The notes below the pieces were generated by a model. The model was not told where the DNA came from. It made no database searches and saw only the letters and a list, made by a program, of their open reading frames with translations. A DNA stretch of 58,231 bases, filler included, from Bipalium vagum (lineage: Eukaryota): the NCBI GenBank assembly GCA_037834085.1. It is 3 parts of 3 records of this genome, joined end to end, with 100 filler letters (N's around TTAATTAATTAA, not from the genome) between each part and the next. Parts side by side here need not be neighbours in the genome. Positions count along the whole stretch, not along the records: positions 40,584 to 58,231 come from JBBMKC010057572.1; 2 more parts are not named here. One strand, given 5' to 3'. Position 1 is the first letter of the stretch. Every line of letters starts with the position of its first letter. The position numbers and the translations under genes were made by a program. This document shows, piece after piece, positions 7,141 through 58,231 of this stretch.

Positions 7141-7309
7141 CACATTGAATATATTATTATAAAAAGCAGTTTTTAATAACACATTTATGTTGTTTAAAAT
7201 TATTTTATACTATGAAATATATATTATATTTAATCCCTCACAAGGCCTTATAAAACTCAAATTTCATTGTAGCTTGTTTTGTTTGGCTAATGTGAGGGAC
7301 AAACCTCAA

Positions 7310-9042: not shown

Positions 9043-10149
9043 TTATTTTTATTTTCGTTTTATTATTATATTGATAATCGGTTCTTTATTTCACTTTCAT
9101 TGATTGTAGGATAAGATATTTCGTCACCTTATTAATGCCTCATTTATTTCCAGAAATCGGCTGACAATTTCCTGTGACGCCATTGTTTCTAGTTTTGGAA
9201 AGTGTAAAAAAAAATTTTTCCCCATTTTTTTTGCAGCTCTGCAAAAATAAAATTCACTTAGTTGGCATTTGCAGGGTTGGATTTTTGTACAAAAAATACA
9301 TAATTATAACCATCGTAACATATATATCAAATTGCTTTTTTCAATTATTAACGAGAAAAGGGGAATTTTCGTTACGAAATTATGGCCAATAAATCAGAGT
9401 ACGGTTATTTAACGGTTTCGTAAGCAGAAAAATATTTTTAGGGCGATGGGATTGGGATTTTTTATTTGATTGATGAATCGAAGATTTTGTATTGTATATC
9501 ACACCAGCAAATTTATTGCTACACGAACAGATAATTAACATCTTTTACAGATAAATCATTCTTTAGCATCAATTATAAGCAGATATTTCAAAGGAATAAT
9601 TGCAGGGTTAAAGTGGGTTTAATTTAAATTGTAATTATTTTTTACTGATGTTAGCTTTGTTTTTCCAATGCTCACGATTTAAGGAGAAGCAAAGCCTTTT
9701 TGAATCCCAACCTCCGTTCCGAAATTATTTTTTGTTACTGTTAGTTTATCTTGGAAAAATTATCGTTAAATATAAATCTAATTGACCCAAAATGAAAATG
9801 ATGGAAAATCTCAGCTGGAAATATATGGATTTTATTTCACTCTGATTTTTGCTTTTCTTTAAGAAAAAAAATAAAAATTAATAACTTAGACTAATTATAA
9901 TAATTATCATAGAAGATATTGCTATTTATAAAATCTTTGTTAAAATAAGTCAATAAATTTTAACCTTTGTACATATTGTGTAAAGAGTACCAATTTATAC
10001 AATCCATTAAAGATATCAATAAAAGGATGTTCAATAATTTGTTGTTACTTTTATTGAGTTACCGCGTGGAGTATTAGTCAGAATCATCATTCAGAGTATT
10101 AACGGTATACTTTTTATTATTCATATCTATACATCGACTGCAATTTATA

Positions 10150-10950
10150 GTATAAACAAATTAGTTGAACAAAGAATCTGCCTTATGCTACAGAAGATCT
10201 AACATGATTCGGGTATGTCAAAAATACAAACATGTGAATGATATAAAATTATTCAAAGATGGCAAAGAAGGGATAGTTGATTTTCCTCGTTGTTTTCGAT
10301 CATCAATATTTATAACCAACGAAAACATTTACAAAATAAGAAGTTTGTGATCTACAATATGATATTATTAGATTACGAGTGTGATATGGAAACTAATCAA
10401 TAGTTTTCGGAATGGTGCCTCGAAAACAAGCCGAAACTCAAAAAACAGCAACAGAATCAGTCAGAAATCAAGACCACGTGGACTGCTTTTTTTTCGATTA
10501 CTGCGGTGTGATGCACTTAGAATTCCTTCTAAATAAAGAAACAGTAAAAGGATTGAGATAGAATATCCGAACAAAACATGGTTTGTGGAAGGAAAATTCA
10601 TGTAGATTGCCTCATAATAATGCACAATCGCATAAAGTCATTGTTGTGCAAGAGTTTTGAGCAAAAAGCTCAACAAACGTTACCGAACAGACACCATACT
10701 CGTTTGATATAGTTCTGCATGACTTTTCCTGTTCCTCAGGCTAAAATTACAAATACCTTGAGTCAAGTTAATAAATACAAAACAATTCACTAAATGAGCT
10801 GACAAACATATCTCAATCAGCCTACAAAGATTTAATCATCCGCTGATATAGTTGTATTACAGTGGATGAGGCTCATTAAGAAGGCAAAAAAATTATCAAT
10901 CTTTTTTTTGTCTAATAAAGAATTCCAGGTACTTTATACATAACAAGTAT
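10150..10950 (+). mobile_element. mariner (DD34D) degraded transposase
   Basis: FKDGKEGIVDFPR, AFFDYCGVMHLEFL, HNNAQSH and QTPYSFD motifs spread across frames. Confidence 0.75.
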
Positions 10951-10964
10951 ACTGAAACATTTCA

Positions 10965-11030
10965 TACAGTGAAACCTCGTTAATTCGAACTCGGTTAATT
11001 CGCAAACTTTCTTAATTCGATAACGATTTT
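10965..11030 (+). mobile_element. pogo/Tigger-like terminal inverted repeat (one end)
   Basis: TA followed by CAGTGAAACCTCGTTAATTCGAACTCGGTTAATTCG, a typical Tigger end with internal TTAATTCG repeats. A more diverged copy lies near 20747. Confidence 0.55.
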
Positions 11031-11240
11031 GGTTTACAAATAATGGAAAAATCGACAATTCTCATGGATATGGAATATGAGTGCCGGAGTGAATCCAGCA
11101 CAATCAAAACTGACCGGAAAATAAAATTATGTAATTAGGAATGGTGCATCTAATCAATTTATTACAATGTCCTAGTATCAGTCCAAATCTGAATCCGAAA
11201 CTTTTTATTTTAAATATTTTATTAATTTCAATAAAATTTA

Positions 11241-12460
11241 CAGTATTGATTTTAAGTTTAAGACACCCTATATAAATATATACATATATATATAAGAAAA
11301 GAAAATGACATTTTTTTGGATAATTATACATGTTAGTATTTTGTGATATAACCATGGTGTCGAACAACTTGCTGAAGACGTCTACCTATTGAAGAAACAC
11401 AATGTTTACTTGATATTGATAACCAAGCTTCATGAATACTCTCAATGATTTCTTCAACATTGCGAACTGTTTTCCTTGTCACATTCTGCTTCATTATACT
11501 CCATATATTTTCAATACAGTTCAAATTTGGACTTTGAGCAGGCTATGGTACAATAAAATCGTCCATATTATGATCATGTAACCATTGCTGAACTTTTTTT
11601 GATTTATGAACAGGCTGTTATCCATAACAATTTTGAAATCTGGTATTTGGAATAATTCAATAGATGGTATTAAGGAGTTCTCTAATGCCATAATGATGTC
11701 ATCAGCCTTGACATTATTACTGAAGACATGAAGAACACCATCACCGCTAAAAGTCATTGTGCCGAAAACCATGACAAACCTACGAACAACAAGGTAAAGG
11801 AGCATTCATCGGTCCAGATAATTCGATTCCAATCTTCTGCTTGCCAACTTAATCTACTGGAACAACATTGGATTCTAACCCGTCTATTACCAACACGTAA
11901 CATGGGAACTTTATAACTAGTTCTAGCTCTAAGTCCGTACTTAACCAAAATTTTGCGGATATGTGATTCTGATATATTAATACTCGATGCTTTCCTCAAT
12001 TCTACCGATGTTGCACGACGATTCTGTCTGCATAAACGATATAAGTATCGTTCATTTCGGAAAGTAAATAGCTTTGGACGCCCAGACCTAGAACGATGTT
12101 TGACCATTCCTGTTTCTTCAAATCGACGGATTGTTTGCAAACACATGTCCTGGATACTTGTAAAACTTTGGCTATGCGCTTCTTAGTTGTTCCGACACGA
12201 TGTGCCCCAATGATTTACCAGTATAATGAATTGTCTATTGTTCGTCTACCCATATAAATTTCTAAATAATAAAATGATGTTTTAAATGATTTAACTTAAT
12301 AATAAACGATTTAATTTTAAGTGATAAAATTTAAATTCAAAAAAATAAATCATTAAATGACTAAAATAGCTTATTAAAAGATATGAAAATGATAAAAATT
12401 TATATAAATGAATTACAATTCAGTTTTACATGGGGTGTCTTAAACTTAAAATCATTAGTG
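11241..12460 (-). mobile_element. Full-length (1220 bp) Tc1-like element with pseudogenised transposase
   Basis: 28-bp TIRs CA(G/C)TA(T/A)TGATTTTAAGTTTAAGACACCC with TA on both sides. Transposase fragments: RSGRPK HTH, WTDE, MDN, QSPNLNCIENIW. Confidence 0.92.
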
Positions 12461-13511
12461 TATCTTATATTTTTAAATATATTATTTTGCGATGAATGAT
12501 TTAAAGAAAATAAAAATTAATAATAGGAAGAAGTATTTTGTAAGATATTAGTTTTATTTGAATAAATTAATATGAGATTTTCCACATGTAAAAATAAAAA
12601 AAAATTTAATATCAATTTAAAAAGTAATTGTTTTGTAAAGATTCCAAAAATTGAATAAATTAGTTTGAGCCAATAATAATGAAAAAAAATATTATAAGAT
12701 CTAAAATATTACATTTAAGATATTAAGTACAGATATTCCGTTATAAAAATTTATTCAATTCATTATTGATTAACATACTTTAGTCACATCACCCTCACAT
12801 TAACGGTAATACTATATACATGTATGAAGTACACAGCTTTTGAAATATAATTCAGGGGCTTTTGAAATATTGATTAGGATATAACAGTATATGACCCATT
12901 AGAGAGACAATAATTTGATTTTAATTGAAATTATTAATAAAATTCACAAAAATAATGCTTCATGTTGACATACTTTTTTTCTAAAAATTATAATAATAAT
13001 AATAATAATAATTCTATAGATTTTCACTTTCATTTTCTGAAATCTTAAATTCAATAAACCACTCATAGCCTAAAATAAATAAGAATCTCTGTAATAAAAT
13101 ATGTATTATTATTTTTCTGTAATTCAATGTTTTACTCTTTGCTATATGTATATTCTTAAAAACAATTATATTATATTTATGATCTTATCTCGATTAAAAA
13201 TGTAAGCCTAATTTTTCACTCTTGGATTCTCATATAAGCATCATTCTTCGAATAAATAGTGAACAAAAATAATAATGCAAAAATTTTTCAGTCTCTTTTC
13301 TTTTTTCATAATTTTCATTTTTTATGTTACATTGACTGATTTTTCGTTTTGCCCTATTCCCGTTCGGAAAGGATTTTGTGAGAAATGAAAGAGACCTTTT
13401 ACTGAAATAAAACACACTTCAAATCAACAATGCAAAACGTATTGGTATTTATAGAGAAAATACAAACATGAGACAAAATTGAAATATTCATCATCATCTT
13501 TTTTCCAATAT

Positions 13512-14858
13512 TCATAATCTTTTAAGGAATATCTTTTTAAAAGCTGCTCGAAAATCGCGAGAAACAATGAAATATATAATGGGATTAATAGCGCTATTTG
13601 TATATCCCAGCCAAAAGAAAATATCGAACAATAACTGCTTTTCATTCAGGTTTATGAAAGCACTGGCAATGTACAGTGTGAAAAACGGTGCCCAACAAAT
13701 GATAAAAGCTCCACAGACAATCGCCAGGAGCCGGGCCGCTTTTGTCTCTTTAGCGTATTTGTTGTGTTTGATTTGGGCTCTTTTCTGTTTGGCAATAAGA
13801 ATTTTCTGATCGATGGCAATCTGATCAAGTCGGGCTACGTTTTCGCTATTGGACTGTTCCACAATCTCTGTGATTGCTGACATGATTCTCGTACTTCTCA
13901 TGCCGATGGTTTCGATTGATATTGGAACATCGGATCGGTTCTGGGTCGATGTCGTCGATGTCGTTGATGTCGTTGAAATGAGACGGTCACTGGGTTTGTC
14001 TTGCAGAAAGGCATAGCGCCATTTATCATCTGAAGTGTGCAGGGGAAGTTTTTCAAAGATTTTCGAATTTTTCCTATTTCCCGTACCGAAATGTATTCTC
14101 ATTGTTGGACATCCCTTTTTGTCAGTACTCAATGCACCAGCTCGGAACTTTTGAGCATTCTGTCTCACTGTGGAAAAGATCCGTGCATAGAAATATACCA
14201 GTATGATTAATGGAATGAAAAAAGATCCCAAAGCCGAATATATTTTGTATATTTGGTTAAATGTTTCAACAGAACAGGAATAGTTTACAATTTGGTAACA
14301 ATCCTTATTGTATAAATAATTCAAATAGATATATTCAGATTCATTTGTCCAATGGTCCGAGGAATCTGTGGAAATGATGGAGAATATTGTCGGTGCACAA
14401 ATGATGAAAGCCGATATCCAGACGAAAGATACGAGAATTCTTGCTCGGCCATGGCTCATCAGGCTGGGATATCGAATCGAATGGCAAATGGCTATGAATC
14501 GATCCAAGCCCACAATGACCAGATTCAAGATGCTGGCAGTTGATAAGCAAACATCTATGGCCAACCATGAACCACATAACAGGTTACCGAAGACCCAGTG
14601 TTTCTTTAACAGTTCGTTTGTCGTTGACAAAGGTAATACAAATACTCCTAGAAATAAATCGCTGGCAGCTAAGTTAATAATGAATATATTTGCAATGGAA
14701 TTTCGCAATCGCCAAAAACTTTTCACTAATATAATGACTAAAATATTGCCGATGATTACAAGTAAGTTGATGAACACAAGACAAAAGCATAAGCTGATGA
14801 AAGTCACTGATAGGAAAAAGTTTGCGTTGAAACAAAATGTGGAATTTTTCAAATTCAT
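13512..14858 (-). CDS. Intronless class A aminergic GPCR, alpha-adrenergic-like octopamine receptor (OAMB/Oct-alpha type)
   Basis: 448-aa ORF with 7 hydrophobic segments. Motifs: GN (TM1), LAASD (TM2), D3.32 in WLAIDV, DRF, YSALGSFFIP, MRIH.G, ETKAA..LAIV, CWAPFF, FWLGYTNSAINPIIY..SRDFR.AFK. Confidence 0.9.
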   Translation of the reverse strand: MNLKNSTFCFNANFFLSVTFISLCFCLVFINLLVIIGNILVIILVKSFWRLRNSIANIFIINLAASDLFLGVFVLPLSTTNELLKKHWVFGNLLCGSWLAIDVCLSTASILNLVIVGLDRFIAICHSIRYPSLMSHGRARILVSFVWISAFIICAPTIFSIISTDSSDHWTNESEYIYLNYLYNKDCYQIVNYSCSVETFNQIYKIYSALGSFFIPLIILVYFYARIFSTVRQNAQKFRAGALSTDKKGCPTMRIHFGTGNRKNSKIFEKLPLHTSDDKWRYAFLQDKPSDRLISTTSTTSTTSTQNRSDVPISIETIGMRSTRIMSAITEIVEQSNSENVARLDQIAIDQKILIAKQKRAQIKHNKYAKETKAARLLAIVCGAFIICWAPFFTLYIASAFINLNEKQLLFDIFFWLGYTNSAINPIIYFIVSRDFRAAFKKIFLKRL

Positions 14859-15842
14859 CTCATTTGAGAATTATACAAAAATAATTATAACTGAAAGAAT
14901 TTTATTTATTTTCCCAATATCGATATTTAATATTTGGACGGTTTTGATTGGCTATTTCTTTTTAAAATCAAAATAAAACTTTAACAAATTAAATAATGAA
15001 ATATACCAAATAAAAATTAAATTTACCATATTCAATTTCAGTCGTTAATTTAAATATTTTTTTTTAATATTGTCTGGTTAGCTAGAAAAGATTATTTTAT
15101 TTTTGGATTAAATAAAAATTCAAGTATATACAAAATGAACAAAATAAATGAAAAATATCTAGAGTCAAATGATAAAATTTTCAATTATAAAAATAAACTC
15201 GAATTCTAAAACGTGAAAATCATTAGTGTGATAATTAATAAAAATAATTTAACTAATTTTTAAAATATGGTAACATTAAAAAAATTTTTAAACAAATATT
15301 AATTGAAAAATACAGAGAAATCAACTATATAATAATAAAATGAAAATTAACAAATAGAATTTATCAAGGAAAAATTTTGTTCTTCATTAACAATTAAAAT
15401 CAATTCATTAAATTTGCTCTTTTCTATTCCAAATAAAATAAATTACCATGTTTTAATTTTAATTAAAATTAATTTTAATAGTTAATTTTAATCGATAATT
15501 TTAATTCCAAAAAATAATTCCTGGTTAATTAAATATTTTAATTAATTATAAAATGAAATATTTTAAAATATTTTATTTTTGAATAAGATTAATATTATAA
15601 ACGAATTATTAATGTAAGATCATTTTTATCAATATCTAAAATCGTAGAAAATACTAATATGATATATATTAGGGTGACTCCTAAGTAATGGCGTATTTTT
15701 GTTTAACTATTTCAAAATTATTTTTTATATATTGGGTTGTGGAATAAGTTCTGCATTATTTTTAGTAAAAATAAAACTCAAAGTTCTAACATCAAAATAT
15801 TTATTTTAATCACAGAAATAATGACCATTGTTGTCGATTACT

Positions 15843-15942
15843 NNNNNNNNNNNNNNNNNNNNNNNNNNNNNNNNNNNNNNNNNNNNTTAATTAATTAANN
15901 NNNNNNNNNNNNNNNNNNNNNNNNNNNNNNNNNNNNNNNNNN
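15843..15942. other. Artificial contig linker N44-TTAATTAATTAA-N44
   Basis: Exactly 100 bp with stops in all six frames; identical structure at 40484-40583. Confidence 0.95.
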
Positions 15943-18759: not shown

Positions 18760-19235
18760 TTTATCATTCCCAGCCAAAAATTCACTTTCTATGAATTTCT
18801 CTGATATTGAAGAAATTCAGTAGACTTTTTGATTCCCCAAATGCAACAATTATGATGGTTAACTTTTCCACGAGTGTGGAAGATCGCTTTATCACTAAAG
18901 ATCATGTTTTTAAGTAAATCTACATTTTTAATTTGATAATCAGCTCTGCACACATAACTGGTCTGTTAGAATAATCTTCCTGTAAATGATGAAAAATTTG
19001 AATATAGACTTTCAAAACAGATCGCAAGACTCTATTGACTGACATATATGGAATATCTAAAAAATTTTCAGTTTCATTAAACGATAAGTGAGGTTCTTGC
19101 TCAAAGATATCTCTAATCATTTGGCATCTTTCATCAGATTTTCCCGGACATCCACTACTGATATCAACAGATCCAGTCCACTGAAATTTCATTGCTATGT
19201 CACACATAGCTTTATCTGTCGGATTTTTTTTCCAA
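18760..19235 (-). mobile_element. rosa/DD41D-type transposase remnant
   Basis: KFQWTGSV.D..SGCP, then MIFSDKAIFHTRGKVNHHNCCIWG in the continuation. Confidence 0.7.
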
Positions 19236-20939
19236 TTTTTTTTTATATTTTTTATTAATTCTCCTTTTATTTTTAATTTAACAATCAATTCTTATTTAGA
19301 TGATGACTCCATTTGGCTGATTTTTTCCTGTTGATATAGCAATCTGCTTCATGAACAAAAAATTAAACTTCATCTTCACATTTGAATTTCTCAAAGATTT
19401 ATTGCACCATAGATACCACCGAGTAAACAAGGAGATTCTATTACTAATATCACTTTAATTGTCTTCTAGGCTCTTCAATGTCTCTAATCTCTTATTTCTA
19501 AGCTAAACAAGCCAAATGCAAATTCTTCAACATTTATTTAATTAGAACAGTTGAAGTTTGGTCTCCCTTCGGTCAGATATAGTCCATAAAATAATATCAA
19601 CACTTTTTATATCAATATCAATATACAAATATATTTATAATTTTCTCTATTCTTTTCCTTAATTTTTTATTCGTCAGAATTTCGACTCTAATTTTATTTA
19701 AAAACAAGTTACATTATTTTGTCTTTAATTTCTGATTTTATATTTTTGACATGTTTTTCAATTTTTTCTTGGTTATCAGACTAAAAGTTCTAGAAAAAAA
19801 TTAAAACTCTTTCGTTCTGATGTTAAGTTTTTAATATTTCTTCTTCAAAGATTGAATTCTCTTTCGTTCTCGTTTGCATTTTTATTATTTATATTATTTT
19901 AATAATAAAAATAAAGATTTTGAAATAAGTTATTACATACTAAGTCCTTAATGATTATAATTAATTACAATTACCCAAAATCTTTTAAATTCAGTTTTTT
20001 GGTAAAATAATTTTTCCATTGAAATTTTAAATAAATATAAATTAGATTTATTTTTAAATGTTTTTAAATAAAGATCCATTTATGTTTAAATAGATTAAAC
20101 TTAATATTTTTAAAATTTCTCGATAAATATTTAAATATATAAACCAGACATTTTATATTTTTAATGGTTTCCTATTTCTTACTTTCAGAAATTTATATAG
20201 GTTCAGCTATTTTTATTCAATTAAACTCAAAGGAAGAGCAACTTTGTTTAATTTTGAAAATGGATCTATATAAATAATTCAAATTATATAGAAAATCGAA
20301 CTGTGGTGAAATAGTGAAAGTACTTTAATTTTCTTTTAGAGTTGCAAAAGATATTTTGGGTTTTCCAGATTACGCAAACCAATTCTAAACAAGTGAGTAA
20401 TCTTTTTGGTCAAAAACATTTTTTAAAGGTAGTATTGTAAGTGATTGAAGAAATCAAATTATTGATCCAAAATTTCTATAATTAACCATGTTAATGGAGA
20501 TCTGGGCTTCAACTGAGCATCGTAAAATTACTTATGGTAACATTTCAAATAAATTCTACTGATATATCTATTATAAGTATCCTGTATATTTTCGAGCGGT
20601 ATTTTGTAATGTATTTTTGATTTTCACAATGATTTTTATTGAGAGGTTATGATTTCCTAGAGTTGCCATCACAATATATCTATCGACCTATATAATTTAA
20701 AAATATTAATCTTAGCCAATTAAAAACTCATTGTATCTTATTGATTATAGTGAAACTTGGTTAATTTAAATCCTCTTAATTTCGACCAAATTTCCTACTA
20801 AAGCTTATGAATAAACACATTTTAATAATTTTTTTGCACCAGATGATTCTGGTATTAACTAGAGTTTGTTCAATTTATGAAGAGTTCGGCAAAATAAACA
20901 AAAATATTAAAATTTCAATATTAACATTTTTATAAAAAA

Positions 20940-40483: not shown

Positions 40484-40583
40484 NNNNNNNNNNNNNNNNN
40501 NNNNNNNNNNNNNNNNNNNNNNNNNNNTTAATTAATTAANNNNNNNNNNNNNNNNNNNNNNNNNNNNNNNNNNNNNNNNNNNN
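40484..40583. other. Artificial contig linker N44-TTAATTAATTAA-N44
   Basis: Same 100-bp structure as 15843-15942. Confidence 0.95.
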
Positions 40584-44699: not shown

Positions 44700-47600
44700 A
44701 TGGATCGATTTATAGTGAACAATAATTCTGCAAAAGCTGTGGACGAATATTTAGAATATAAACGGTAAATATATTTCGAGTGTTTTTTAAAATGTCTCTC
44801 ATTATGTCTTCAATGAAAATGAGCTGCTTAGTTACATAATGGAGGCATGTGGGAAATTTAATATTTGAGCTGGTTAATAAATATTTAAAAATGGTATATT
44901 GTGCTCAAATTAACTAACTTTTTAGAAGAAACACGTGATAAATAATATTTAATAAAATAAGATGATTCAGTGTTATAATTTTGGTTTTTATAAATTATTT
45001 AAAATAATTTATGTTACCTGTAACGTCGTTTTCTCTAACTTTTTATAAAATTATGAGATCTCGCTTATTACTTTTTTTCATATCTCATGATCATTTGGTA
45101 ATTTAGAAAATTATACTTCAGAAATTAATTTATTATTCTAAATGTTCACATTGTGCATCAAATTCATTCAATCTTATTATTGCATTAATGAAAATTAAAA
45201 CAGTCAAAAATGTGAATGGAGATTCGAATGATACTTAGTTTTTGTTACTTGTTTATGTAAATGTGTAAAGCTAGCATTATTATCTGAGCTTAGCGGGTGT
45301 CTTAAATTAAAATGTTGATAAAGAGAGATAAATACCTTCTGAACTAAAAATATTTTTTGTCGTAAATGTTCTTAAATCATTTACGAAGAAACCCTTTCTC
45401 TATTTCAAAATATTTGTGCTAGTATAGAAATTTTTCAAAAATTAATAAATTTGCTACTACTATTTTTTAATTTGTCAAATATGAAAAGGATTTTGAAACT
45501 TATGTCACTTGAAATGATTGAATATCATAAGTTGTTTATAATTCTTAATAGGTCTCATTTAATAATTAAGTCTTAAAATTTATAATTTTATTAACTATTA
45601 TATTTAAACTTAAGAAACTACTTTAACACTATTCTTGAAAATTCTCACATTTTTGTTTTACAAAGTAATCTCAATTCTTCCGTATAAAGTTGGATGGTCA
45701 ATGCATTTAAAATTAACTATTTTTCGACATATTAACAAATTACTTGCATTCACATTAAATTAAAAATTTTCAAATAATGGTACAGCAGCACTCTTATCTC
45801 AAATTTTGTAGAATTTATCTTAATCACAAGATTTGAAAAATTATTTATTGAAATTCAAAATCTTACAGTCAATATTTAAACAAATGATAAATTGCTACAT
45901 AAATGAAAATATACATTTTACACATAAAATGTAGCTATTAAATTTGGATTAACGACGCCATTAATCAAGGTACCATTGTAATAACTAATAAACGATTAAA
46001 ATGCTAATTTATATTAAATGGGATGAAATTTCAACAAAATATTTTTGAATATCTCAATATTTGAATATTTAAAATCACCTTATGACAAAGTTTGAAGTAA
46101 ATATTTACTAATAATGATATCAAATATTATATTCAAAATTATAGACTATTTTCATTTCACTCAATATTTTCAAAAAATTTCTAATAAATATAAACGTAAT
46201 CTAAAGAAGATAAATCAAAGGTCTTTTTGTTTTAACGTATCAATTTAACATAAATAAATTCCATGGAACACATTCGAGTGACAAAAGATCAACAACGTGG
46301 GATAGATGAGTATCTTCAATACAAAAGGTATAAAAGTATTTATGATAATGTATTTTGCAAAGTATTTGTATATTTTTAATCTGTTCTACTAATTTTTTTT
46401 AGAATTGTTGGCAACGATGATGGTGGTGTTTTGTTCACACCGGAGCAATATGAAGAATATAAGAAAAAAGTTATTCCGATGGTAAGCACTATTTTTATTA
46501 TTACTCTTAACTAAATCTGTTATTTTTTCTATATTTTTATTGATATATTTAAATTTATTATGAATTTTATTTTGATTGGATTCCATTAAATTTTTTTGAT
46601 ATTTCAACCGTTTGATAAGGCTTATATGTACTTTGAAATGATTGGTAGCTTTTGCAATTGATGCTGATTGGACATATTGAACTTAAATTCCAATGTTATG
46701 TATTTCTTTTATTTCCTAGCAATCATTTTTCGCTGTAATTACTTATTTCCAAACAAAGTAATAGTAAACTGCTTAACCGATAAACATGGTTGTAAGTTGA
46801 AAATTAATCTGATAATGGGATTCACATGCGCATGGAAAGCTCTGATCGCTGATTATATGTTCTTAAAAATAGTACTGAATGAATATTGGATCACTCCGAT
46901 TGGATATATTCAAAAAGTAACTAAAGAACAGTTAAACCGTTTTAAATTAATTATTGTAAATTAATTACTATGAAGATTAACGAAATTTATAAAAAAGTGA
47001 AATTTTGATCATAAATGTGATCATAAGTTATTTGTGATTCATGACTAAACTCTTACTTTATCTCTTGAAGAAATCATTTCCTGGCCTAATATTGTAAGAG
47101 TTAATTTTTTAAATATTAAAATTTCAGAGAATGGCCAATCGTATATATATTAGTTGGACAAATCCTCAAGGAATGGATTGCATACTTCCTGGTCCGCAAA
47201 CGGAGTGTTTTTGTCAGCACCGCTTAATTGATCATAAAACAGACTTTGATGAAATACCACAAACGCGACCAATAATGATTCCCTGTCAGTCCTGTAACTG
47301 CAAATCATTCAATTATATGGTAAAAATGTCCGGACAACCATGTCGATGTCACTGCAAGCATGAGCCAGCCAGTCATTTAAAAGTATTTATATTGATTACT
47401 CATTATTATTATTAACATCATGATCATTAATTTTATTAATATTTTTACATTATTTATTTAGAAATGGGCGCTTAAATAAATAACATTTATTATTTCATAT
47501 ACCACTAAAAGCCTCGCATATTATTTTTTATGTATGTTTTTCTCGTTTATATTAAGTTTTTATTGTATGTAAGTATCGTCAGTGAAAATCACTTATTTCC

Positions 47601-50600
47601 AGAAGGTTTTCTTTGAACCTTCATTAATAGCTGCTTTTTCACAGGTCGCCTTGAAAATCTACCATATTTTATTAAAACATTCCGATTGGTTTTAAGTGTA
47701 ACTTCCGAAATTTGGGGTAGTTCTTATTGAATCTTTCTGGCAGTTAAAATAGGATTCCTTTTGCTTTTTCTTCGAACCATTTTCTAATCTCGTGCTGTGA
47801 GCTTCTCTTTACATCCACACCTGCCTTTCCTTTTCGGTACCACAATGCCTTCTATTTAGAATTTAAGAATTAATCTTGTCACAGTAGCCTTGAGAATCGA
47901 CAGTCTCCGGGAAATATCATTTCCAGCAAATTCTGCTAGATGTAACTCTTTGATCTTAGCTCTTTTCAGTACAAGTTTACTTTAACAACCCTGTTTTATA
48001 AGCAGACCAAGCATAACACAGAGTTATTTTTAGATTTTCTTTTATATAGGTCATTTATGTAAGTCTTTTTTTAAAAGTTTTTTTTAATAGTATGTAATAT
48101 AATATATGATAACAGGTTTTGTATTAATACCTATAAATTCAAATAATTTATTACTTCATAATTATTGTAAAATCATTATCTTTAACAAATGATCAATATA
48201 AATTATACGTATATATTGACTGGATGTTAAATTGTTATACAATAATTTAGTGTCTCAATTAATTTTTCCGATACTGTATATTTATAAATTTTAAGATTTA
48301 CAGGGTCTTCCAAAAGAAGCTTTACTACTTTAAGTCGCAATTTCTCCGTACATAAAAATTAAAAAGCCAAGTAATTCATGCTACCTTTATTTAAACACAG
48401 ATATTACAAAAATTTATATTTTAAATACGATTTTATTAAAATGACCGCCTCTGGCAGCCTTACAAGTTTGAGCTATTATTATGGAATTTTGGATAACTTT
48501 TTGGCATGTCAAATGAGATCATCGCGATTTGTTTCGAAATGTTGTCTTTGAGTTGTGTAATAGTTTTTTGGTTGATTAATATAAACTTTATCTTTTAGAT
48601 ATCCCCATAAGAAATAGTCTGGAACCGTCAAATCGCGAGATCTGGGAGGCCAATCAACATCATCGAAACGTGAGATCACGCCAGATGGAAAAGTTTCTTG
48701 TAATAATGCAATTGTTTTCCTATTTGTATGCGATGTGGCACCATATTACTGAAAGTAAATAATCTCCACATTAAAATCAATCAGATAAGGCTTAAGGAAT
48801 GTTTCTATCATGTGTCGATATCTCTCCCCCGTTACTGTAACTGTTTTACCTGCAGCATTTTCGAAAAAGTATGGACCTTGCCCATATTCAACATCATAAA
48901 GTAACTTTTGATGAATGTAATGCTTCTTCCTTCAGAATATAGGGTTGCTTTGTTGCTTAAATTCGACAATTTTGTTTATTAAAAACACTTTCACTCAAGT
49001 GAAAATGACTTTCATCAGTCTTAATGATTTTTTTCCAAAAATGAGGATCCGCAATTGATCTTTCTAACAACAAATTACAATAATTCAGGCTAATTTGATG
49101 GTCTGATTCTTTAAGCTTCTGAACTACGATAAGCTTATAGGCTTTCATATGCAAACCTTCATGCATTATCCACGACAAACTGGATTTTGAGAGGTTTAAT
49201 TCCTGCGCTCTATGACAGATTGAGGTGCATTTATTGTCTTCAATGCTTTCTCATGTACTTGCAATATTTTCAGATAAACGTGCAGATCGAGGTGTCCAGA
49301 TTTTGGTCTATCTGCTACCGAGCTAAGTGCTTCAAAAGCATTAACCAGACTGTAAATTGTTGGTTTTTATGGACATTTGTTTTTCCCAAATTTTGCATTG
49401 AACTACCGCTTTGATAAAATATTTTGACAATTTCTGCCCCTTTTTGCATATTATATAACGATCCATATTTAATTTTCAAATGTTTAGCTAGAATAATGTT
49501 AAATATTAATTTATTTAAACAAAAACTACTTGGTATTTTATATGTTAAAAGTAGTAAAACTTCTTTTGGAAGATCCTGTATATTAGTATTAATATTGATT
49601 ATTACGTAAAAGTAAAAATAAGGATTGCTTGGTGAATAAACTTATTTTATCAAGTGAAATTTATTAATTTTGGCTCATGTGAGTAACCGAAATCTTGTAC
49701 AATGCACACAAACAGTTTACAATTGTATTTCCTTTTGAAAAAAATAAAATTAATTCTGCAAACGTGAACTTGTGATTCTTTTTTGCAGATCAAACCGTAC
49801 TCTTGCACAACAAAAAACTGTAATTGTGCCGAATACAAGACCAGTTACACCTGTGACTGTGGCATGCCTGCCTATCAGCATACAATGATCGTAAATACAA
49901 TTGGACTGTTGATGTTTTTTTTAATTTACAACTTCGTGATCAGATCGAGACGAAAGACGAAAGGATAGCCAGAGGTCATCCAGTGGGACAAGACAACCCC
50001 TATAAAGGCATGGGCGGGATAACGGGATTCAGTTCATTGGCTGCTGGATATGAACGATTAGATCCCAGCGGAATCGGTGCACCTTCAGAAGAATTTCTCA
50101 ATCAACCAATTACTAATGATGACCATCCATTTTTACGGATGCACCTCGAAGGCATTCATCAATACAAAATGGCAACCAATGACATAAAAGGTAGAGGATC
50201 TGGATATTCTTTTGATTTCTATTGATTTAAAAATTTTATTTTAACTAAAAGTAGATTTTATTGATTATTATTTTTGATTTCCAGTTTTTTCAGTTTAAAT
50301 TTTTTTCACTTAAATTATTATAATTGATTTATTATTAATATTATTGATTAATTATTATTATTATTATTGATCAAAAAAACGATTGACACGAATTTACTGA
50401 TAGATACATTTAACAATTATCCTAACCTGTAGTTTTTTCTAATTTATTCTTCAGTGATCTTGAAAATCGTTTTTTATTGATTATTAATTGAATAGTTGGG
50501 AAACTTTTGAATTTTTTTATTTTTTTTAAGATTATTTTCTGATTTTTAGGGGCGATGATTGACAACGAAGAAAGAATGGCAGCCATGCGTCAACCTGGTG

Positions 50601-50792
50601 AATCTGAACTTGATTATTATGAAAGGCGATATAAAGAAAAAGTTGTTCTGTCCTTATTTCTCTCGATGGACAAAATAATACAGTTTTAATTTTTTGTAAA
50701 TTTAGGAAAAGAAAAAATATATCAAAGGTCCAGTGAGACCATCCATACAAGCATCCTCTAATCCTATAACCAGAGGAACACGGCGTCAGTAA
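44700..50792 (+). CDS. FAM221A: FAM221A family protein, 7 exons: 44700-44764, 46403-46481, 47128-47382, 49789-49890, 49944-50190, 50550-50641, 50706-50792 (927 nt, 308 aa)
   Basis: All introns are GT-AG and phases are compatible. Motifs: AVDEYLEYKRIVGNDDGG.LFTPEQYEEYK, GMDC..GP.T.CFC.HR, CRCHCKH, TCDCG.PAY.H, PY.GMGG.TGFSSLA.GY.RLD.SGIG, YYERRY. The last exon rests on splice signals only. Confidence 0.92.
47560..48278 (-). mobile_element. Tc1-like 5' remnant in FAM221A intron 3
   Basis: TA followed by CAGTATCGGAAAAATTAATTGAGACAC as the end; KRAKIKELH..ISRRL..PKRKGRCGCKEKLTARD..RRPVKKQLL. Confidence 0.75.
48301..49578 (-). mobile_element. Full-length (1278 bp) rosa/DD41D element with pseudogenised transposase, in FAM221A intron 3
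   Basis: 32-bp TIRs CAGG(G/A)TCTTCCAAAAGAAG(C/T)TTTACTACTTTT flanked by TA. Motifs TDESHFHL, NKQNCRI, GATSHT and WPPRSRDLTVPDYFLWGYLK; 41 residues between the second (mutated) and third catalytic positions. Confidence 0.93.
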
Positions 50793-51249
50793 ATTATATT
50801 CGATCGTAAATGTTATCAGATTTCAAAGTGATTTCATCTTTTTCATCTTTAGAAATTCTAAATTTCTCAAATCTTTTTTGAAAACAAGAATTGAAATTGT
50901 GCCATTCTTTGATAGCTCTTGATTGAAAATAGAATTTTTGAAAATATTTAAGTAATATTTCGATTTTAGCTAAGTTCGGCTTGAGACATTCTTCAACACA
51001 CAAAGGGGACCCCGTTTGTACCACCATTTTTTCCTCCCTCATTCGTATGCGTGCCGCCCGGCATACACGTTCATTTGTTCGTCAAAAACGTGTTTACAAA
51101 TAAGATTCCCTTTGTGTGGCATATAAAATTAATTTGTTTTTTCATACACATAAAATATACCAAAAATTAATAAAAATCAAAAAAATAATAAAAAATCAAA
51201 ACTTAAAATTTTTCTTTAAAAAACTGGCAACTGAAAATAATATTAATCA

Positions 51250-54200
51250 AAAAAGATAGCGAACCCAGAATTAATTATTGATGAATGGCAAGCTATAAAT
51301 AAAAACTTACCTTTTGAAAATTGTCCTTTGCCAGATAATTTATTTCACGATGATTTTAACCAGACAACAGAAATAGTAGATGATAATTTGATTCATTATT
51401 TAAATTCTCATTATTATAAAAAACATCTTGGTTCAGTTTTTCAATATAAGATTTCACCAGCAGATACAACTTCAAAAAATATTCGTAGTTGTTTAAATTT
51501 TATTTTAGAAATCGTTACAAATGATTCAGATAATTATAGAGTTAAACTAACACCTTTACATCCGATAATATATTCAAAACATGGTTCATTTCCTTTAACA
51601 AATAAAGATAATGTAATTAATTTATTATATTCCAAATTAGAAAAAATTTTATATTCTGCTAAAGAAGTAAATATTGAAGACGTAACTATTGAATCTTTAA
51701 TAATACCAATACCTCAAGGACAGGGAAAAAATTAATATTAATTATAATGGTAATAATTCTAAAAATTTAATATTATAAACGTTTGCAATATTACTATTAA
51801 TATAATACAAAATAATGATACACTTTGCTTGGCTAGGGCAATAATAACTTCTTTAACTTATGATAATTTCACAAATAAAAATTATTTAAACCTTGGAGAA
51901 AAAGAATAGAATTAGATATATTCCAAAAGGGAGATACAATTCAAGAAGAATGGGCTATAATATTACATAATGTGACAAAAGTAGAAATTAAAGAAAATCG
52001 TAATAATATTGATGATTTAAATTTAAGAATTATAGTTTATCATCACAATAATAATAATTCTATTTTATATAGAAACAATGAAAATTTTGAAAAACAAACT
52101 TTTATATTTTATGATCATGAAAATCATCATTTTATTTCAATTGCAAAAATATCAGATTTTTTAAAATCACAAAAATATTGTCACAAATGTTTGCTAGGAT
52201 TTCAAAATCAACATAGATGCGAAGTAGATAATGTTACAACTTATAGAAATTCAAAAATTTGTGAAAATTGTAAACAAGAATATTACAGTAGATCTGATCA
52301 TAGATGTGGTTGTAAAAATTGTCCAATTTGTAATGAAACTTATGAACCACCTTTTAATCAACATAAATGTTTTATGAAAAATAATGAAGGGCATTAACAA
52401 AGTAATAAATATTTATTTTTTGATTTTGAATCTATACTCAAGAAAATGCAGGTTATCATGAAATGAATTACGCAATAGCTTATGATACTGAAAGAAAAAT
52501 ATATTTTAAAATTGCCCAATTTCATATTTTAAAATTAAATTAGAATTAGAAAATTTAACAAATGAAAATATTCAAAAAAATATTGAATTTTTAATAGATT
52601 CAAACTCTTTTATCGATACCTTATGTAAATTTTTCATTAGTGAAGATTTCAAGCAATATACTTTTATAGCTCATTATGCAAAAGGTTATGATAATCCTTC
52701 AATATTAGGTTGGTTAATTAAAAATAAGTTGCCAGTTGAAAAATTGAGTTCTGGTAGTAAAATTACTTTTATGAAAATCAAACATTTTAATATAAGATTT
52801 ATTGATTATATAAATTTTACTTTATGCCCAGTAAAAAATTTTCCTAATACATTTGGTTTCAAGGGTTCAAAAGGATATTTTCCACATTATTTCAATACAA
52901 CAGAAAATCAAAATTATTTTAGTGTTTATCCAAATTTAGAATATTATGATTATAATTATATGAGTGAAAATTCAAAAGAAAAAAAATTATTAAAACATTG
53001 GCATGATGAAAAAATAAAAAATAATGAAATATTTAAGTTTCCTATTCAAATGTTTTATTACTGTTTAACTGATGTTATGATTTTATTAAAATGTTGTTCA
53101 ATTTATAGAGATATATTTTTAAATATAAATATATCAAAAGCTACCGAAGGTTTTAACAACAAAGTTGTTGATAAAAAAATAAATATGGATCCTTTTCAAT
53201 ATATAACAATAGCTCAAGTTTGTACACAAATATTCTTATTTATGATAAATGATAAAGATATTGGAATTCCAAGATTAAATAATTTTGAGGATGTATATTC
53301 TCATAAATGTATTCATTGGCTAAAATTTATAAGTAAAAAATTTAATCAAAATATTCAACATGCAAAAAAAGGAGGAGAAAAAATAATTAATGTCAATAAT
53401 AAATATTATAAAGCTGTTGATTATTATTATGATACAAAAACTAAAATTCATTATATCTATGAATTTAATAGTTGTTATTTTCACGGTTGTCTAAAATGTT
53501 ATGATAAAAAAGAAATGTGTAAAATAGGAAATAAAACAATGGAAGAATTATATAATAGAACTTTAGAAAAAAATAAAATTATAAACTATAATAAAGATTT
53601 TAATTTAAATTTACAATTTGTAGAATTATGGGAATGTGATTTCAAAAGCTTTTAAAAAATTCTGAATTTTAAAATTTTAAACTCGACCCAACATTATCTA
53701 CATTAAAACCAAAGGAAGCAATTTTTGGAGGAAGAGCTGAACCTATAAAATACATAACATAATGGAACACGTTGTTTGAAAAACACTCACACTCTAAAGT
53801 TAAACATGTAGATTGTTTTTCACTATATCCAACTGTAAATAAATATGATAAATATCTATTTGGACACCCAATAAAAATATTTAATATTACTCCAGAGGAA
53901 TTTTTTAAAAATGGTGTCATTTCTAATGACAAAGCTACGCGTAATTACTTTGGAATTATGAACTGTAAAATTTTACCACCAAAGAAATTATTACTACCAT
54001 TTCTACTTGTTACACAAGAATTTGGAAATGCTCATAAATTATTATTTGGTTTATGTAGAACTTGTATGGAAAAAATATATAAAATGTGATCATCACATAA
54101 AAAATAATAATTGTTCTAATTCTAAAAATTATGATCATATAATAAATAAATATGAAACTGTATGAAAAATAAATTTGATTTAAATCATTCAAAAAGAAAT

Positions 54201-55399
54201 TGTAGAACATGTTATAATTCTAAACAAGAAAAATGTAATCATAATGATGAAGACAGATCCCTAATAAGAATATGGTCTACAATTGAAATAAATAAGGCAA
54301 TAGTAAGAGGATTCAAATTAATAAAAATTTATTTATTAATAGAACATTTTGAAATAAACAAGAAAAGGATTATTTGAAAACTATGTAAATATATTTATGA
54401 AATATAAATTAGAAGCATCTGGTTGTAAATGTAAATATCATTCTGAAAGTTGTTCACCAGATTGTAATAAACATTGTAACGAAGATTGTAAAAATGATCA
54501 TGATTGTAATATAAAAATTTAATTTTTTGCAGACAATATAGCTTATGATTTAGATATTGATTAAGTTTGCAATATGCTTATGTTTATAATTATGAGGTTT
54601 TGCAATATGTTTGTGTTTATAATTATTATGAGGTTTTGCAATATGCTTATGTTTATAATTATTATGAGGTTTTTAAAATAAATTTTAATGAAAAATTTAA
54701 AGAACTAAATCTAATAATTTTAAATGAAGAAGTTTGGATGATGAAATATCATTTAAAAGAAGAATGGAAAAAATCAAATAAAACTAAAAATATTTTTATA
54801 GCTTTATTTACAACAGCTCATGCTAGATTAAGATTATATGATTTAATGGATAAATTAAATGAGAGAGTAATTTATTGTGATACTGATAGTTATATATCTA
54901 TTGATGATTCTTGTGAAAATAAAAATTGTGATCACGAAGAATGTAAGCATGTTAGAATTATAGAAAATAAATTTGGAGAAAAATTTGGAAATTTAACAAA
55001 AGTTGAAAAAGATTATGGGATTGGATCTTATGTAACAGAAATAGTTGTTCCAGCTCCAAAATATTATTATATGAATATCTGGAGTACTAATAAAAAAGAA
55101 TTTGTAACAACTGGTAAAACAAAAGGATTTGTAAAAAATATTATTAATTCTGATAAAAAAATTTTTGAAAAGAAAAGAAATTAGTATTAAATAATTCTAA
55201 TAATCCATTTAATAAAAGTAAAAATAAAAATTATGAGACAATTGAAAGTATAAAAGTTAAATTGACTGGAAATAGTTTTAATAATTTTAATAGAATACAA
55301 ACAATAGAAGAAATAAAAATGTATGGTTTTGAGTTTAATAAAAGACAAATAAAATATTTAGAAAATGGAAGTGTAATAACTTATCCATATGGATATTAG
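51250..55399 (+). pseudogene. Polinton/Maverick-type protein-primed family B DNA polymerase, fragmented
   Basis: Ordered motifs: DTLCLARAI, Zn-finger CxxC clusters, ExoI FFDFES, ExoII AHYAKGYD, KGYFPHYFN, ExoIII YCLTDV, DPFQYITIA, FGGRAE, motif A VDCFSLYP, KLEASG, FTTAHARLRLY, motif C YCDTDS, KTKGF, TYPYGY*. Many frameshifts and stops. The start coordinate is approximate. Confidence 0.93.
54566..54670 (+). repeat. Tandem triplication (33+36+36 bp) inside pPolB
   Basis: TTTGCAATATG(C/T)TT(A/G)TGTTTATAATTA(TTA)TGAGGT x3, encoding LQYAYVYNY(Y)EV. Confidence 0.92.
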
Positions 55400-55636
55400 A
55401 AAATCAACCAGAAAAAAAGTAATAAAAAATGTTAGAAAAAATATAATAAATTTTGTTATTCGTTAAATAAAAATAAATAATTTTAACATTTTTTTAGTGC
55501 TTAAATTTTAGTAAATTTTGGGAAAAAATAAAAATATTTTCAAATTACTATTAAATAATTAATTATCAAGTGATTAAAAATTATCAAGCATTTTAAAATT
55601 ATTATAAATATTATTCATTATTTCATCGCTTGGAAT

Positions 55637-56290
55637 TTATTTATATAAACAACTTTTTACATTATTCATAAAATTTTTATCATAGTTTAAAAAATATTTT
55701 TTTTCTGTATTATCATATTTTGTTATTCCTCTTATTTTTAAATCATCTCTTATTAATTTATAATTTATAAAATAAGATTGAAATAGTATTTCATAATATC
55801 TTAACATCCAAAATGTAAATTCATTTATTTCTTCCATTCTTTCACTTGTACGGTTTTTAATTTTTCTTTCATTCCTTCAATTTGATTATTTTTTGCTTTT
55901 ATAATTTCTAAATTTTCAAAATTTTTTTATAGATTTATTTGCAAGAATTTCTGTTTGCGAAGAAATATTTTGTCTTTTTATTTCTGTTTGAATTTCAATT
56001 GATTTTCCTTTAAAATCTGTTTGATTTATTCTATCAATTTGTCCATGAGTATTTAATATTCTTTTTTGTAGTCTTTCAACTTCATTTTTATATTTTTCAA
56101 TTTTTGGGGACTACTCCCAGGCAAACTACCAGGAGATGAAAGACAATAGAAATCCTTTTAAACATTCTGTTTGATTTTGTGTGACTCAAAATTATTTCTG
56201 ATCTAACCTTTTGTGGGATCTTTTATATGATATAAAATGTCGTTGTAATCTTAACATTTTGTATAAATCATTATATTGTAAAACAACATT
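55637..56290 (-). pseudogene. Decayed hypothetical gene of the Polinton-like element
   Basis: K/N/E-rich coding-like frame convergent with PolB, ending in ORF 55637-55837; no family recognised. Confidence 0.4.
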
Positions 56291-57237
56291 TTAATATGCA
56301 TGTGTATGTATAAAAATATATTTAAATACTGGCAGATCCCGAAAATTTATAAATTCCGAAATAAATAATTAAATAAATAATTTATTTCGGAAATTAGAAA
56401 AAATGATAAAAGTTATTACTAAAAATAAAAAATGTTAACAAAATTAATTATATAGTCAAGAAAAGAATTATAAAAATAAATAAATATAGTATATTAAAGA
56501 TTCTATAAATAAAAATAACTAAAAAATTATAATATAAATAAAAAATATTTTAGAGAAAAGGCACACGTTGAAATATAGTTTAAGTTACGAATTATTATTA
56601 TCAAGAAATGTTTTCGTATTATATTACAAGGATATAGTCAGTATCTAGTTTCATTCTTCAAAGAATCTAATAGACAGTGACAAGTCTCAACTCCAATTAC
56701 CAAACTGTGAAGAAAAAAACTGACAATTGATATTAAATTTCAAGAGCAAAAATTATATAAGAAGACAAATTCCTCCACGAACAGGAGACGTAAAGATCAA
56801 ACGTAAATCAACAGACTCAAAAGGTTATCAACCGTATTCCAAACCGAGAACAGTCAGCGAGGATCGAGAGTACAAACGAGAACAGAGCAGTATCAATTCA
56901 ACGTGTCTACTCTCAAAACCGGAACTTCGCGATTCCGTAAAGTATTCCAATTCAAAAACCGTCAGTAAAAAGAGTAATTTTATTTATAATTAATTATTTG
57001 GAGAATTGTAATTTGACCACAAGTTGTTCAATTCGAATTCTAATTAGTAATTAATTAAATTAAATTAAATAATCGAAATAATTGAATAGATCCCCAATTA
57101 TTTCGCGGACATCAAATAAACTTTATTTTTTTGTTTCTCTTGTCATTTATCTTTTTTGTCTTCTCAACGTCAAGTAGGGCGGAGAGGCGTTTTTTACTTT
57201 TGAGGGCTCTTGAGGCTAGAATAGCGAAGAGGATAAA

Positions 57238-57517
57238 TTAAAATACTTTACTCTAATTCTTCTTCTGGATTTATCATTAATATTATCGATTTTCTTGTTC
57301 AATAAAGTTTTAATATAAAAATACAATTTATTAAATTTAAATAATACTTTTGATAAATCCAAAGCATTTGCTGTTTGTAATAAAGTAAAAGTTAAATTTC
57401 CATTTTTATTTAAATTTGTTGCTGTTGATGGATTTAAACAAATTTCTAAACAATCACATTTTTTAATGTTAAATCTTGATGATATGTATTTTTATTTAAG
57501 TTCAAATTATTAGTCAT
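57238..57517 (-). pseudogene. Probable N-terminal fragment of a Polinton major capsid protein
   Basis: MTNNLNLNKNTYHQDLT/IKKCDCLEICLNPSTATNLNKNGNLTFTL..ALDLSK, with one frameshift, directly downstream of the ATPase. Confidence 0.4.
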
Positions 57518-57519
57518 TT

Positions 57520-58160
57520 TTAAAAATAAATTTGATTTTTAAAATTTTTGTACAAGTAGATATAAAACTTAAGATAATATTTTTTTCATCTTGTAAATTT
57601 ATAAAAATATGATTATATTTTTCTTTCACATGAAAATCATACAAATAATCAAAATCATCTTTCTTTGTGAAATAAGCTAACATTTTTGAATAAATTTAAT
57701 ATTTATTATTTTTTGAAATTTTAAATAAAATTAAGACATTAATATTATTTCTTATACTTCTTAAAGCTAAATCAAAAAATGATTGAGATAAAAAAATTAC
57801 TGAACATTTATTATGTCTTCCTCTTGTAAAATACATTTCCATAATATATTGATTTTTTTCATTTATTACATCATCAAAAATAATTAAATTTTTAAATTTC
57901 TTATTTAATTTATCAGGAGGTTGAATTTTATTTGCGTTATCACTAAATGTAACTTTTCTTGTATTTTCTTTAAATTCAAAATCTTTATTTTCATCAAATT
58001 TTATTTTTTCTTTATTTTATAACTTTTCATAAATCTCAATTTTTGATAATCCTGATTTAAAACAATTTTTTATATATTTGAATGCTGGTTGAAAAAAAGC
58101 AGTTTTAGAAAAAATAATCAAATTATTATAATTAATAAAATTTAAAGTTAATAACATGTT
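57520..58160 (-). pseudogene. A32-like (FtsK-HerA) genome-packaging ATPase, fragmented, Walker A missing
   Basis: NYNNLIIFSK..FQP, Walker B NLIIFDDV, YFTRGRHNKCSVIFLSQSFFDL..RSIRNN.N.LILFK. Confidence 0.88.
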
Positions 58161-58231
58161 ATATATATACTATAGTATATATAACAGTATATACTAATAT
58201 ATATACTATTACATAATGGTATATAATAGTA

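Follow-up and report, generated by a model that had tools for sequence, protein, structure and literature searches.

A dead, partial Polinton/Maverick copy, probably one element, downstream of a FAM221 gene in Bipalium vagum

The window, by which we mean the whole analysed stretch of 58,231 nucleotides (Bipalium vagum, GCA_037834085.1; filler included), ends in what we read, at a probability of about 0.6, as a Polinton/Maverick (Alpha-class adintovirus) copy, dead and partial, some 200 nt 3′ of a host FAM221 gene, likely a single element of a family that is likely high-copy in this genome. An earlier note, made from the sequence alone, had proposed a decayed Polinton/Maverick-like element and would have abandoned it had no virus-type profile matches been found. 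Such matches are present, Pfam DNA_pol_B_2 and Pox_A32 both standing above their cut-offs, and the polymerase has its nearest named relatives, about 52% identical, in Mytilus Polintons. Sequence comparison supports deriving the polymerase and ATPase from a Polinton/Maverick (adintovirus), and gives moderate support for the same origin of the capsid start. The features are as follows.

47113..50793, plus strand: host FAM221-family gene, spliced (Pfam FAM221; end exons predicted from sequence)
50996..51118, plus strand: candidate left terminus, with (AC)3A at its end, a stretch of about 100 nt having 48-50% GC, and the 11 terminal bases inverted at 51108-51118
51247..55399, plus strand: protein-primed DNA polymerase, full-length but dead (Pfam DNA_pol_B_2, tblastn relatives, motifs)
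51780..52170, plus strand: likely vOTU protease domain within the polymerase, interrupted by a frame change
53290..53652, plus strand: nuclease-like insert inside the polymerase, possibly Vsr-like, with a putative restriction-endonuclease fold (shared insert, weak Vsr matches, model)
54566..54662, plus strand: a 33-36 nt unit repeated three times in tandem, at the place of the missing motif B
55640..56300, minus strand: decayed reading frames without assignment (ORFs of 79 and 64 aa)
56346..57105, no strand: segment with an AT-rich hairpin at either side, the arms of the two being alike (56346-56400, 57074-57105), from sequence and folding
57216..57517, minus strand: likely the 5′ part of a major capsid gene (double jelly roll), the frame changing close to its beginning (capsid N-terminus profile; rest of the gene absent)
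57564..58160, minus strand: A32-like genome-packaging ATPase pseudogene with two in-frame stops (Pox_A32, P0121 alignment)
58161..58231, no strand: AT low-complexity sequence in place of the ATPase start, running up to the window end

Two Pfam FAM221 matches mark the host gene, one at 47113-47412 (E 2e-32), the other at 49857-50222 (E 5.6e-15); its last two exons were read by eye, and it ends about 200 nt before the element. The GC content is 21.4% in the polymerase, 16.9% in the ATPase and capsid part, and 26.6% in the remainder of the window, in agreement with the extreme AT-richness already pointed out.

Within the polymerase, a 381-aa frame (52510-53652) matches DNA_pol_B_2 (PF03175; E 4.1e-10, 39.6 bits, cut-off 25.8). 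When full-length relatives are compared with the window by tblastn, eight colinear plus-strand pieces appear from about 51360 to 55396, with seven frame changes (at least seven for the whole gene), which bears out the earlier description of about 4 kb of fragmented pPolB on this strand. The pieces cover 1199 of the 1363 residues of P0001, at a mean identity of 44.6%, and 1188 of the 1259 residues of P0007. Motifs Exo I (52416), Exo II (52669), Exo III (53059), Pol A (53811), and Pol C (54879) are kept. Motif B is missing, residues 1004-1033 of P0007 and 1128-1142 of P0001 being uncovered. The DNA had been called intronless, and no gap between the pieces requires an intron; spliceosomal introns in the motifs are rejected, as nothing interrupts Exo I-III, Pol A, or Pol C and motif B was lost without intron-like sequence. 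An alternative genetic code is ruled out by the seven frame changes.

The polymerase homologues number 245; the best are 50-52% identical, and those with names are from Mytilus. In a tree of 42 rows, from which three candidates with too little similarity were omitted, the window polymerase pairs with P0001 (99/93) within a nine-row clade that includes bivalve sequences (100/95). Judged by sequence, it is an Alpha-class (pfam03175) enzyme nested among bivalve Polinton polymerases. It bears no similarity to the Endonuclease-VII-bearing polymerases (L060, E 0.99; L061, no match). Against viral contigs the window polymerase gave no match, and its alignment reached one distant locus; a PDB sequence search with the alignment gave no match.

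Two regions of the polymerase deserve separate description. The segment at 51780-52170, which aligns with the N-terminal region of P0001 and P0004, is likely a vOTU protease domain, to judge from its position and from PMC11071308; residues read as the candidate catalytic Cys and His are present. The nuclease-like insert is common to 29 loci, and the same insert motif is seen in insect and reptile matches. Pfam Vsr is matched weakly by seven of 16 aligned insert members (best E 0.02), the window member not among them, and comparison of the insert with Vsr entries gives only E 0.78-0.93. The predicted structure (pLDDT 74.7) aligns with Vsr 1cw0 over 100 residues (Z 5.4, rmsd 3.9), tied with other restriction-like folds, none of which reaches Z 8. 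Foldseek with this model returned no match at E ≤ 0.001.

On the minus strand and facing the polymerase lies the ATPase, as the earlier note had seen. A 106-aa frame (57699-58016) matches Pox_A32 (PF04665; E 5.5e-6, 26.5 bits, cut-off 22.8), and 58160-57564 aligns with residues 44-241 of P0121 at 63% identity in one frame with two stops. Read through the stops as X, the same segment matches no Pfam family at E ≤ 0.01. The pseudogene is without the first 43 residues, including Walker A, and Walker A is absent from every minus frame of 57001-58231. There are 44 ATPase homologues, the best 64% identical; the ATPase alignment found no match among viral contigs.

Downstream of the ATPase, an MCP-like start had been suggested, and this part of the claim has moderate support. 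A purpose-built profile of 124 major capsid N-termini scores 14.0 bits against 57517-57216 over profile positions 8-59, a score equalled by none of 2000 shuffles; the unbroken frame alone scores 8.6 bits, with three of 2000 shuffles as high. The fragment ranks first of 2328 window pieces, narrowly (7.8 versus 7.0), and hhalign gives it a probability of 8%. The similarity ends after about 60 codons, and a whole-protein capsid profile finds nothing further in the window. Direct matches were lacking in the homologue search (249 candidates), the Atlas (best 0.79, unrelated), Pfam, and PHROGs. The N-terminus profile, the sole basis of the assignment, suggests that 57517-57216 is likely the start of the major capsid gene.

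The earlier note had seen no integrase, protease, minor capsid, or AGT-type terminal inverted repeat (TIR), and our searches of the window found no integrase, protease, minor capsid, or TIR partner. Seven integrases (rve) of related loci gave a best E of 0.12, and the element continues past the window end. Five adenain-like proteases gave 0.098, and six minor capsid candidates 0.007, the latter a match of 23 aa within the polymerase gene; in both cases the window does not reach the right part of the element.

The left end of the element may lie at 50996. The (AC)3A there is the sole plus-strand copy in the window and sits at the GC step; the chance expectation for any of three known end motifs in the 454-nt gap is about 0.13. 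This motif is reported from Monopterus Mavericks (PMC8097293). The hairpin of the terminus has a z of -2.3, with four of 200 shuffles equally stable. No convincing TIR partner was found in the window in 12 comparisons, the two with the fewest shuffles as high (1 and 5 of 200) being AT-rich matches, and no target-site duplication (TSD) was found in the window, whose end precedes the right end of the element. The left-end pattern has no match in viral contigs. A separate MITE at 50997-51118 is ruled out, since a flanking duplication is absent and the window holds no second copy.

Between the two gene blocks (55400-57216), the frames of 55640-56300 match no Pfam or PHROG family, and the segment between the hairpins, 56346-57105, matches no Rfam family of any kind. 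The region 56600-57200 is higher in GC and CpG. A group I intron was considered here and rejected: there is no Rfam match, and the fold z values are -2.2 and -1.9, on 20 shuffles only.

Further copies in the genome, of which the earlier note had thought intact ones possible, are supported by one DNA run covering 49500-58150; this run is possibly the source of the window itself, and the contig depths taken from it are not independent. A contig at 49544-51100 (depth 20, no differences) joins the FAM221 gene to the element start. On the stretch, 7368 contigs were placed, 771 at 99% identity or more, 1902 at 95-99%, 2904 at 90-95%, and 1791 under 90%. Summed depth, which is no copy number and at the 85% threshold also varies with gene conservation, is 25-120 in 49789-50944 and climbs to 1360-12919 across the polymerase; it is 554-1026 in 55569-57013, where the unassigned frames are also repeated, versus 8772-51680 in 57014-58150. 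Thousands of diverged contigs fall on the element; therefore, the family is likely high-copy in this genome.

Are the polymerase and the ATPase-capsid halves parts of one element? We consider this somewhat probable. The two halves are decayed to a similar degree, no host-like gene lies between them, and their polymerase and ATPase classes occur together in complete elements. The chief alternative, less probable, is that two unrelated Polinton fragments of different families were brought together, whether one inserted into or next to the other or a high-copy repeat at the scaffold end was assembled from short reads into a mosaic. In its favour are the three depth levels over the stretch and the lack, in the run, of any contig bridging the polymerase and the ATPase module, the element pieces listed being only about 200-350 nt; depth at the 85% threshold partly reflects gene conservation, which weakens the former point. 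The 1.8 kb in which no viral gene is recognisable, the end of the capsid gene after about 60 codons, the gene order unlike that of L014, L015, and L002, the N gaps in the window, and a window end that falls inside the repeat point the same way. The difference in GC between the halves (21.4% versus 16.9%) and the want of a TIR partner or TSD likewise speak against a single element. If the halves are two separate insertions, both remain Polinton fragments.

An unlikely variant is a split family, in which a polymerase-only segment and an ATPase-capsid segment, with shared end sequences, are independently mobile and adjacent here by chance. The two would then have been amplified in this animal, the capsid segment at the higher copy number, in a polymerase lineage otherwise named only from bivalves; this, too, is improbable. 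No integrase lies upstream of the polymerase though a candidate end is just 250 nt away, and summed depth is several-fold higher over the ATPase-capsid part, as such a family would have it. However, the left end (50940-51140), direct or inverted, is absent from 55400-58231 (best of four comparisons, 16 of 200 shuffles as high). Largely refuted is an origin of the polymerase from a bidnavirus or linear plasmid with an ATPase from an unrelated source: Alpha-class polymerases match bidnaviruses too (PMC8502044) and the window is without an integrase, but the closest locus with context, L002, has an rve integrase adjoining its polymerase, the vOTU Cys and His are apparently kept here while the bidnavirus vOTU is described as inactivated (PMC11071308), and a likely jelly-roll capsid start comes after the ATPase.

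The reading as one dead Polinton fits placement with the Alpha-class adintoviruses/group-2 Polintons of Starrett et al. 2021 (PMC8502044), as these are described there. The likeness lies in a pfam03175 polymerase with a likely OTU-type region at its N-terminus, an ATPase, a likely jelly-roll capsid start, and a degraded germline copy; the window copy differs in being without integrase, adenain protease, and minor capsid. Alpha polymerases joined to Beta-class virion modules are already reported in that paper. With the polymerases of Mytilus and other bivalve-associated Polintons (P0002, the P0004 cluster of 71, the P0006 cluster, and L002) and the unnamed P0001, the window polymerase shares 49-52% identity across the exonuclease and nuclease-insert region, and one well-supported clade. 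About half of the residues differ, which rules out a recent transfer. L002 has its integrase head-to-head, directly upstream of the polymerase, unlike the window copy.

The complete metagenome Polintons L014 and L015 pair the same polymerase class (38-42%) with a related ATPase class (28-31%; E 3e-27 and 3e-24) and a jelly-roll capsid, L015 carrying an rve integrase in addition. Their genes lie on one strand, with the ATPase directly after the polymerase and the capsid several genes from the ATPase, whereas in the window the ATPase lies next to the likely capsid start and both point towards the polymerase. Vertebrate Mavericks, most copies of which are degraded, usually have modules that face inward, according to PMC8097293; there, the ATPase is within the polymerase module, and in the window it is in the opposing one. 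Jeong et al. (10.1101/2023.08.22.554363) report pPolB2 Polintons with a VSR domain from molluscs and from a marine nematode; these are alike in the nuclease-like insert of a group-2 polymerase and in mollusc affinity. For planarian Polintons/Mavericks, silencing by piRNAs is reported in Schmidtea and expansion in Dugesia (PMC8532177; 10.64898/2025.12.11.693146); by description, they would agree with a high-copy family, provided that the host is itself a planarian.

We propose that a Polinton inserted about 200 nt downstream of the FAM221 gene, with the polymerase (plus) and the ATPase-capsid module (minus) probably in convergent orientation; the genes for integrase, protease, and minor capsid would lie beyond the window end or have been lost by deletion. 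Going by the literature, protein priming at the termini would serve an active relative for replication, and it would insert by a retroviral-type integrase that leaves a 6-bp duplication, and could pack its DNA into a jelly-roll capsid via the ATPase. The window copy is incapable of replication, insertion, or packaging, having lost motif B, Walker A, and the greater part of the capsid gene.

The earlier suggestion of a probably undescribed viral family is not supported: the polymerase, by sequence, is Alpha-class and nested with bivalve Polinton polymerases, and L014 and L015 pair the same polymerase and ATPase classes. The element, a broken, partial copy of a known type and likely one among many, is thus an ordinary viral fossil and no new virus family, at most an unnamed subfamily of a known kind. 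Animal genomes commonly hold decayed Polinton copies, and this combination of genes has been described, so that it is of little consequence in itself. Should the halves prove independently mobile, it would be a segmented Polinton; a literature search turned up none by title or opening of the abstract. The element may bear the rarer (AC)3A end motif, found in the literature drawn on here only for an eel, and it is useful as a marker of an apparently abundant family and of a polymerase clade with named members from mussels.

We propose that the polymerase and the ATPase-capsid modules at the right of the window are parts of one Polinton element, a reading to which we give a probability of about 0.6. 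A single Polinton would have inserted at position 50996, with its two modules facing inward, and would then have lost the capsid interior, polymerase motif B and the ATPase start. Observed directly are the genes, the breaks in them, the junction to a host gene and a large number of related sequences in one sequencing run. The features are as follows.

50996, plus strand: candidate left end
51247-55399, plus strand: broken polymerase gene
57517-57216, minus strand: likely start of the major capsid gene
58160-57564, minus strand: broken packaging ATPase gene

The best homologues of the polymerase have 50-52% identity; wherever a top match is named, it comes from Mytilus. Full-length relatives align in eight colinear pieces separated by seven frame changes, with 1199 of 1363 residues covered for P0001 and 1188 of 1259 for P0007. 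The P0001 alignment contains 20 stop codons. Most of them form two clusters, at which the alignment probably crosses additional short frame changes. Motifs Exo I-III, Pol A and Pol C are retained; motif B is missing, its place being taken by a 33-36 nt unit repeated three times in tandem. In a 42-row tree of the 381-aa polymerase frame, which excludes the polymerases of the near-complete Polintons L060, L061 and L062 as too dissimilar, the window pairs with P0001 (99/93) within a clade of Mytilus and other bivalve-associated polymerases (100/95). The nuclease-like insert of the polymerase at 53290-53652 is predicted to fold into a restriction-endonuclease-like shape, to which Vsr is no closer than other folds of this type (for Vsr, Z 5.4, rmsd 3.9, 100 aligned).

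The earlier note's minus-strand packaging ATPase is borne out, as the middle frame matches Pox_A32 above the cut-off and the gene has 63% identity to its relative P0121, with two in-frame stops. Counting against this identity, the 199-aa X-read version matches no Pfam family at E<=0.01. The first 43 residues, Walker A included, are missing, and AT low-complexity sequence takes their place up to the window end. In the ATPase tree, the window groups with three unnamed proteins, P0121-P0123 (SH-aLRT 100).

The capsid-like start proposed beside it is moderately supported. Direct searches (homologue search, Atlas, PHROGs) returned nothing for the fragment, and its hhalign probability is 8%. A search profile built on three jelly-roll capsids of related loci gathered 150 capsid proteins, of which 127 full-length ones were kept as the basis of new profiles. 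On the unbroken frame, the whole-protein profile scores 3.5 bits (19 of 1000 shuffles equally high) and a profile of 124 capsid N-termini 8.6 bits (3 of 2000). Once the frame is extended by the first 15 codons, counted from the ATG at 57517, with an X at the break, the N-terminal profile reaches 14.0 bits over its positions 8-59, a score matched by none of 2000 shuffles. The match keeps the register set by the start codon and adjoins the 3′ side of the ATPase on the same strand. Judged by sequence, 57517-57216 is likely, though not certainly, the start of a major capsid gene; the whole-protein profile finds no further capsid sequence anywhere in the window.

The absence of integrase, protease and minor capsid from the window held on comparison with proteins of complete related loci: none of seven integrases, five proteases, six minor-capsid candidates, five core proteins and 17 further proteins finds a credible match there. 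No Pfam, PHROG or Rfam family occurs in the 1.8 kb separating the modules. Within it, two AT-rich hairpins with similar arms (56346-56400 and 57074-57105) stand on either side of a stretch richer in GC and CpG, which contains a basic ORF of 89 aa (56724-56993); 56346-57105 may be a repeat in its own right, inserted into the element.

A spliced host gene of the FAM221 family ends at about 50793. On the plus strand, (AC)3A occurs just once in the window, at 50996, exactly at a GC jump to 48-50% over 100 nt. This is one of three end motifs that PMC8097293 reports for vertebrate Mavericks; since any of the three is expected about 0.13 times by chance in the 454-nt gap, it is only a candidate end. 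No partner repeat lies within the window.

Public run X1, possibly the source of the window itself, contains 41% of the words sampled; its contigs were aligned to 49500-58150. One 1557-nt contig of depth 20 spans 49544-51100 without differences, ending there and connecting the host gene with the element start. Summed depth, which is not copy number, is 25-120 in 49789-50944, 1360-12919 across the polymerase, 554-1026 in 55569-57013 and 8772-51680 in 57014-58150. By identity, the 7368 contigs, part of which fall on an intron repeat near 49500, divide into 771 at >=99%, 1902 at 95-99%, 2904 at 90-95% and 1791 at <90%. The contrast between element and flank indicates a large, diverged repeat family. 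Bin 49500-49788 itself has a summed depth of 18101; it touches an intron segment of the FAM221 gene, 48400-49560 (minus strand), which we take from its motif to be a decayed Tc1/mariner-like relic, without a Pfam match. Similar relics lie at 1753-2136, 11754-12182 and 18920-19291, and a single-ORF rhodopsin-family GPCR at 13512-14870 (minus strand; 7tm_1, E 1.7e-61). This GPCR and the spliced FAM221 gene show that the host is an animal.

The chief points against one element are the uneven depth and a gene order unlike that of L014 and L015, complete or nearly complete metagenome Polintons, and of L002, where an integrase lies directly upstream of the polymerase. Two adjacent Polinton fragments, or an assembly mosaic, are a real but lesser possibility. 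None of the X1 contigs listed bridges the two modules. N gaps occur at 8872-9042, 15843-15942 and 40484-40583, the last two being filler between joined records; at least two enclose a TTAATTAATTAA spacer, from which the window is read as a scaffold of short-read contigs. On the side of one element, among related elements (59 loci were gathered with the polymerase alignment), L014 and L015 each have a polymerase of the same class, a related ATPase (28-31%) and a jelly-roll capsid; Pfam confirms the rve integrase of L015. In L015:5129-6304, one fused ORF encodes both that integrase and a parvovirus-type phospholipase A2 domain, and an ORF at L014:5415-6593 begins similarly. The complete 13.1-kb element L001:1-13142 is bounded by perfect TIRs of 101 nt and encodes a polymerase, an ATPase and a jelly-roll capsid; those of its ORFs that were examined showed no integrase.

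A truly split family, with polymerase and ATPase-capsid parts separate, is improbable. L060 and L061 have a related ATPase but another polymerase class (Endonuclease VII, no pfam03175). L004 and L005 have a polymerase near that of L014, yet a quite different ATPase and no match to the capsid profile, which points to modules being swapped inside a single polymerase clade. In Starrett et al. (PMC8502044), Alpha adintoviruses are defined by an OTU + pfam03175 polymerase, and Alpha polymerases joined to Beta-class virion modules are already reported. The records of L060, L061, L062 and P0179, a bivalve-type Polinton polymerase, are labelled bacterial MAGs; host contamination is the likely explanation. 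A non-Polinton origin is very improbable.

As described in the literature, Polintons replicate by protein priming, insert through their integrase with a 6-bp duplication and are possibly packaged in capsids. We found no paper on this particular subfamily; bioRxiv supplements, outside our scope, may include Polinton sequences from planarians or bivalves. Planarian Polintons (PMC8532177) and a Polinton expansion in Dugesia (10.64898/2025.12.11.693146) are already in print, and most Maverick copies in vertebrate genomes are described as degraded fossils (PMC8097293). The Bipalium vagum element is a further member of this known Polinton kind.
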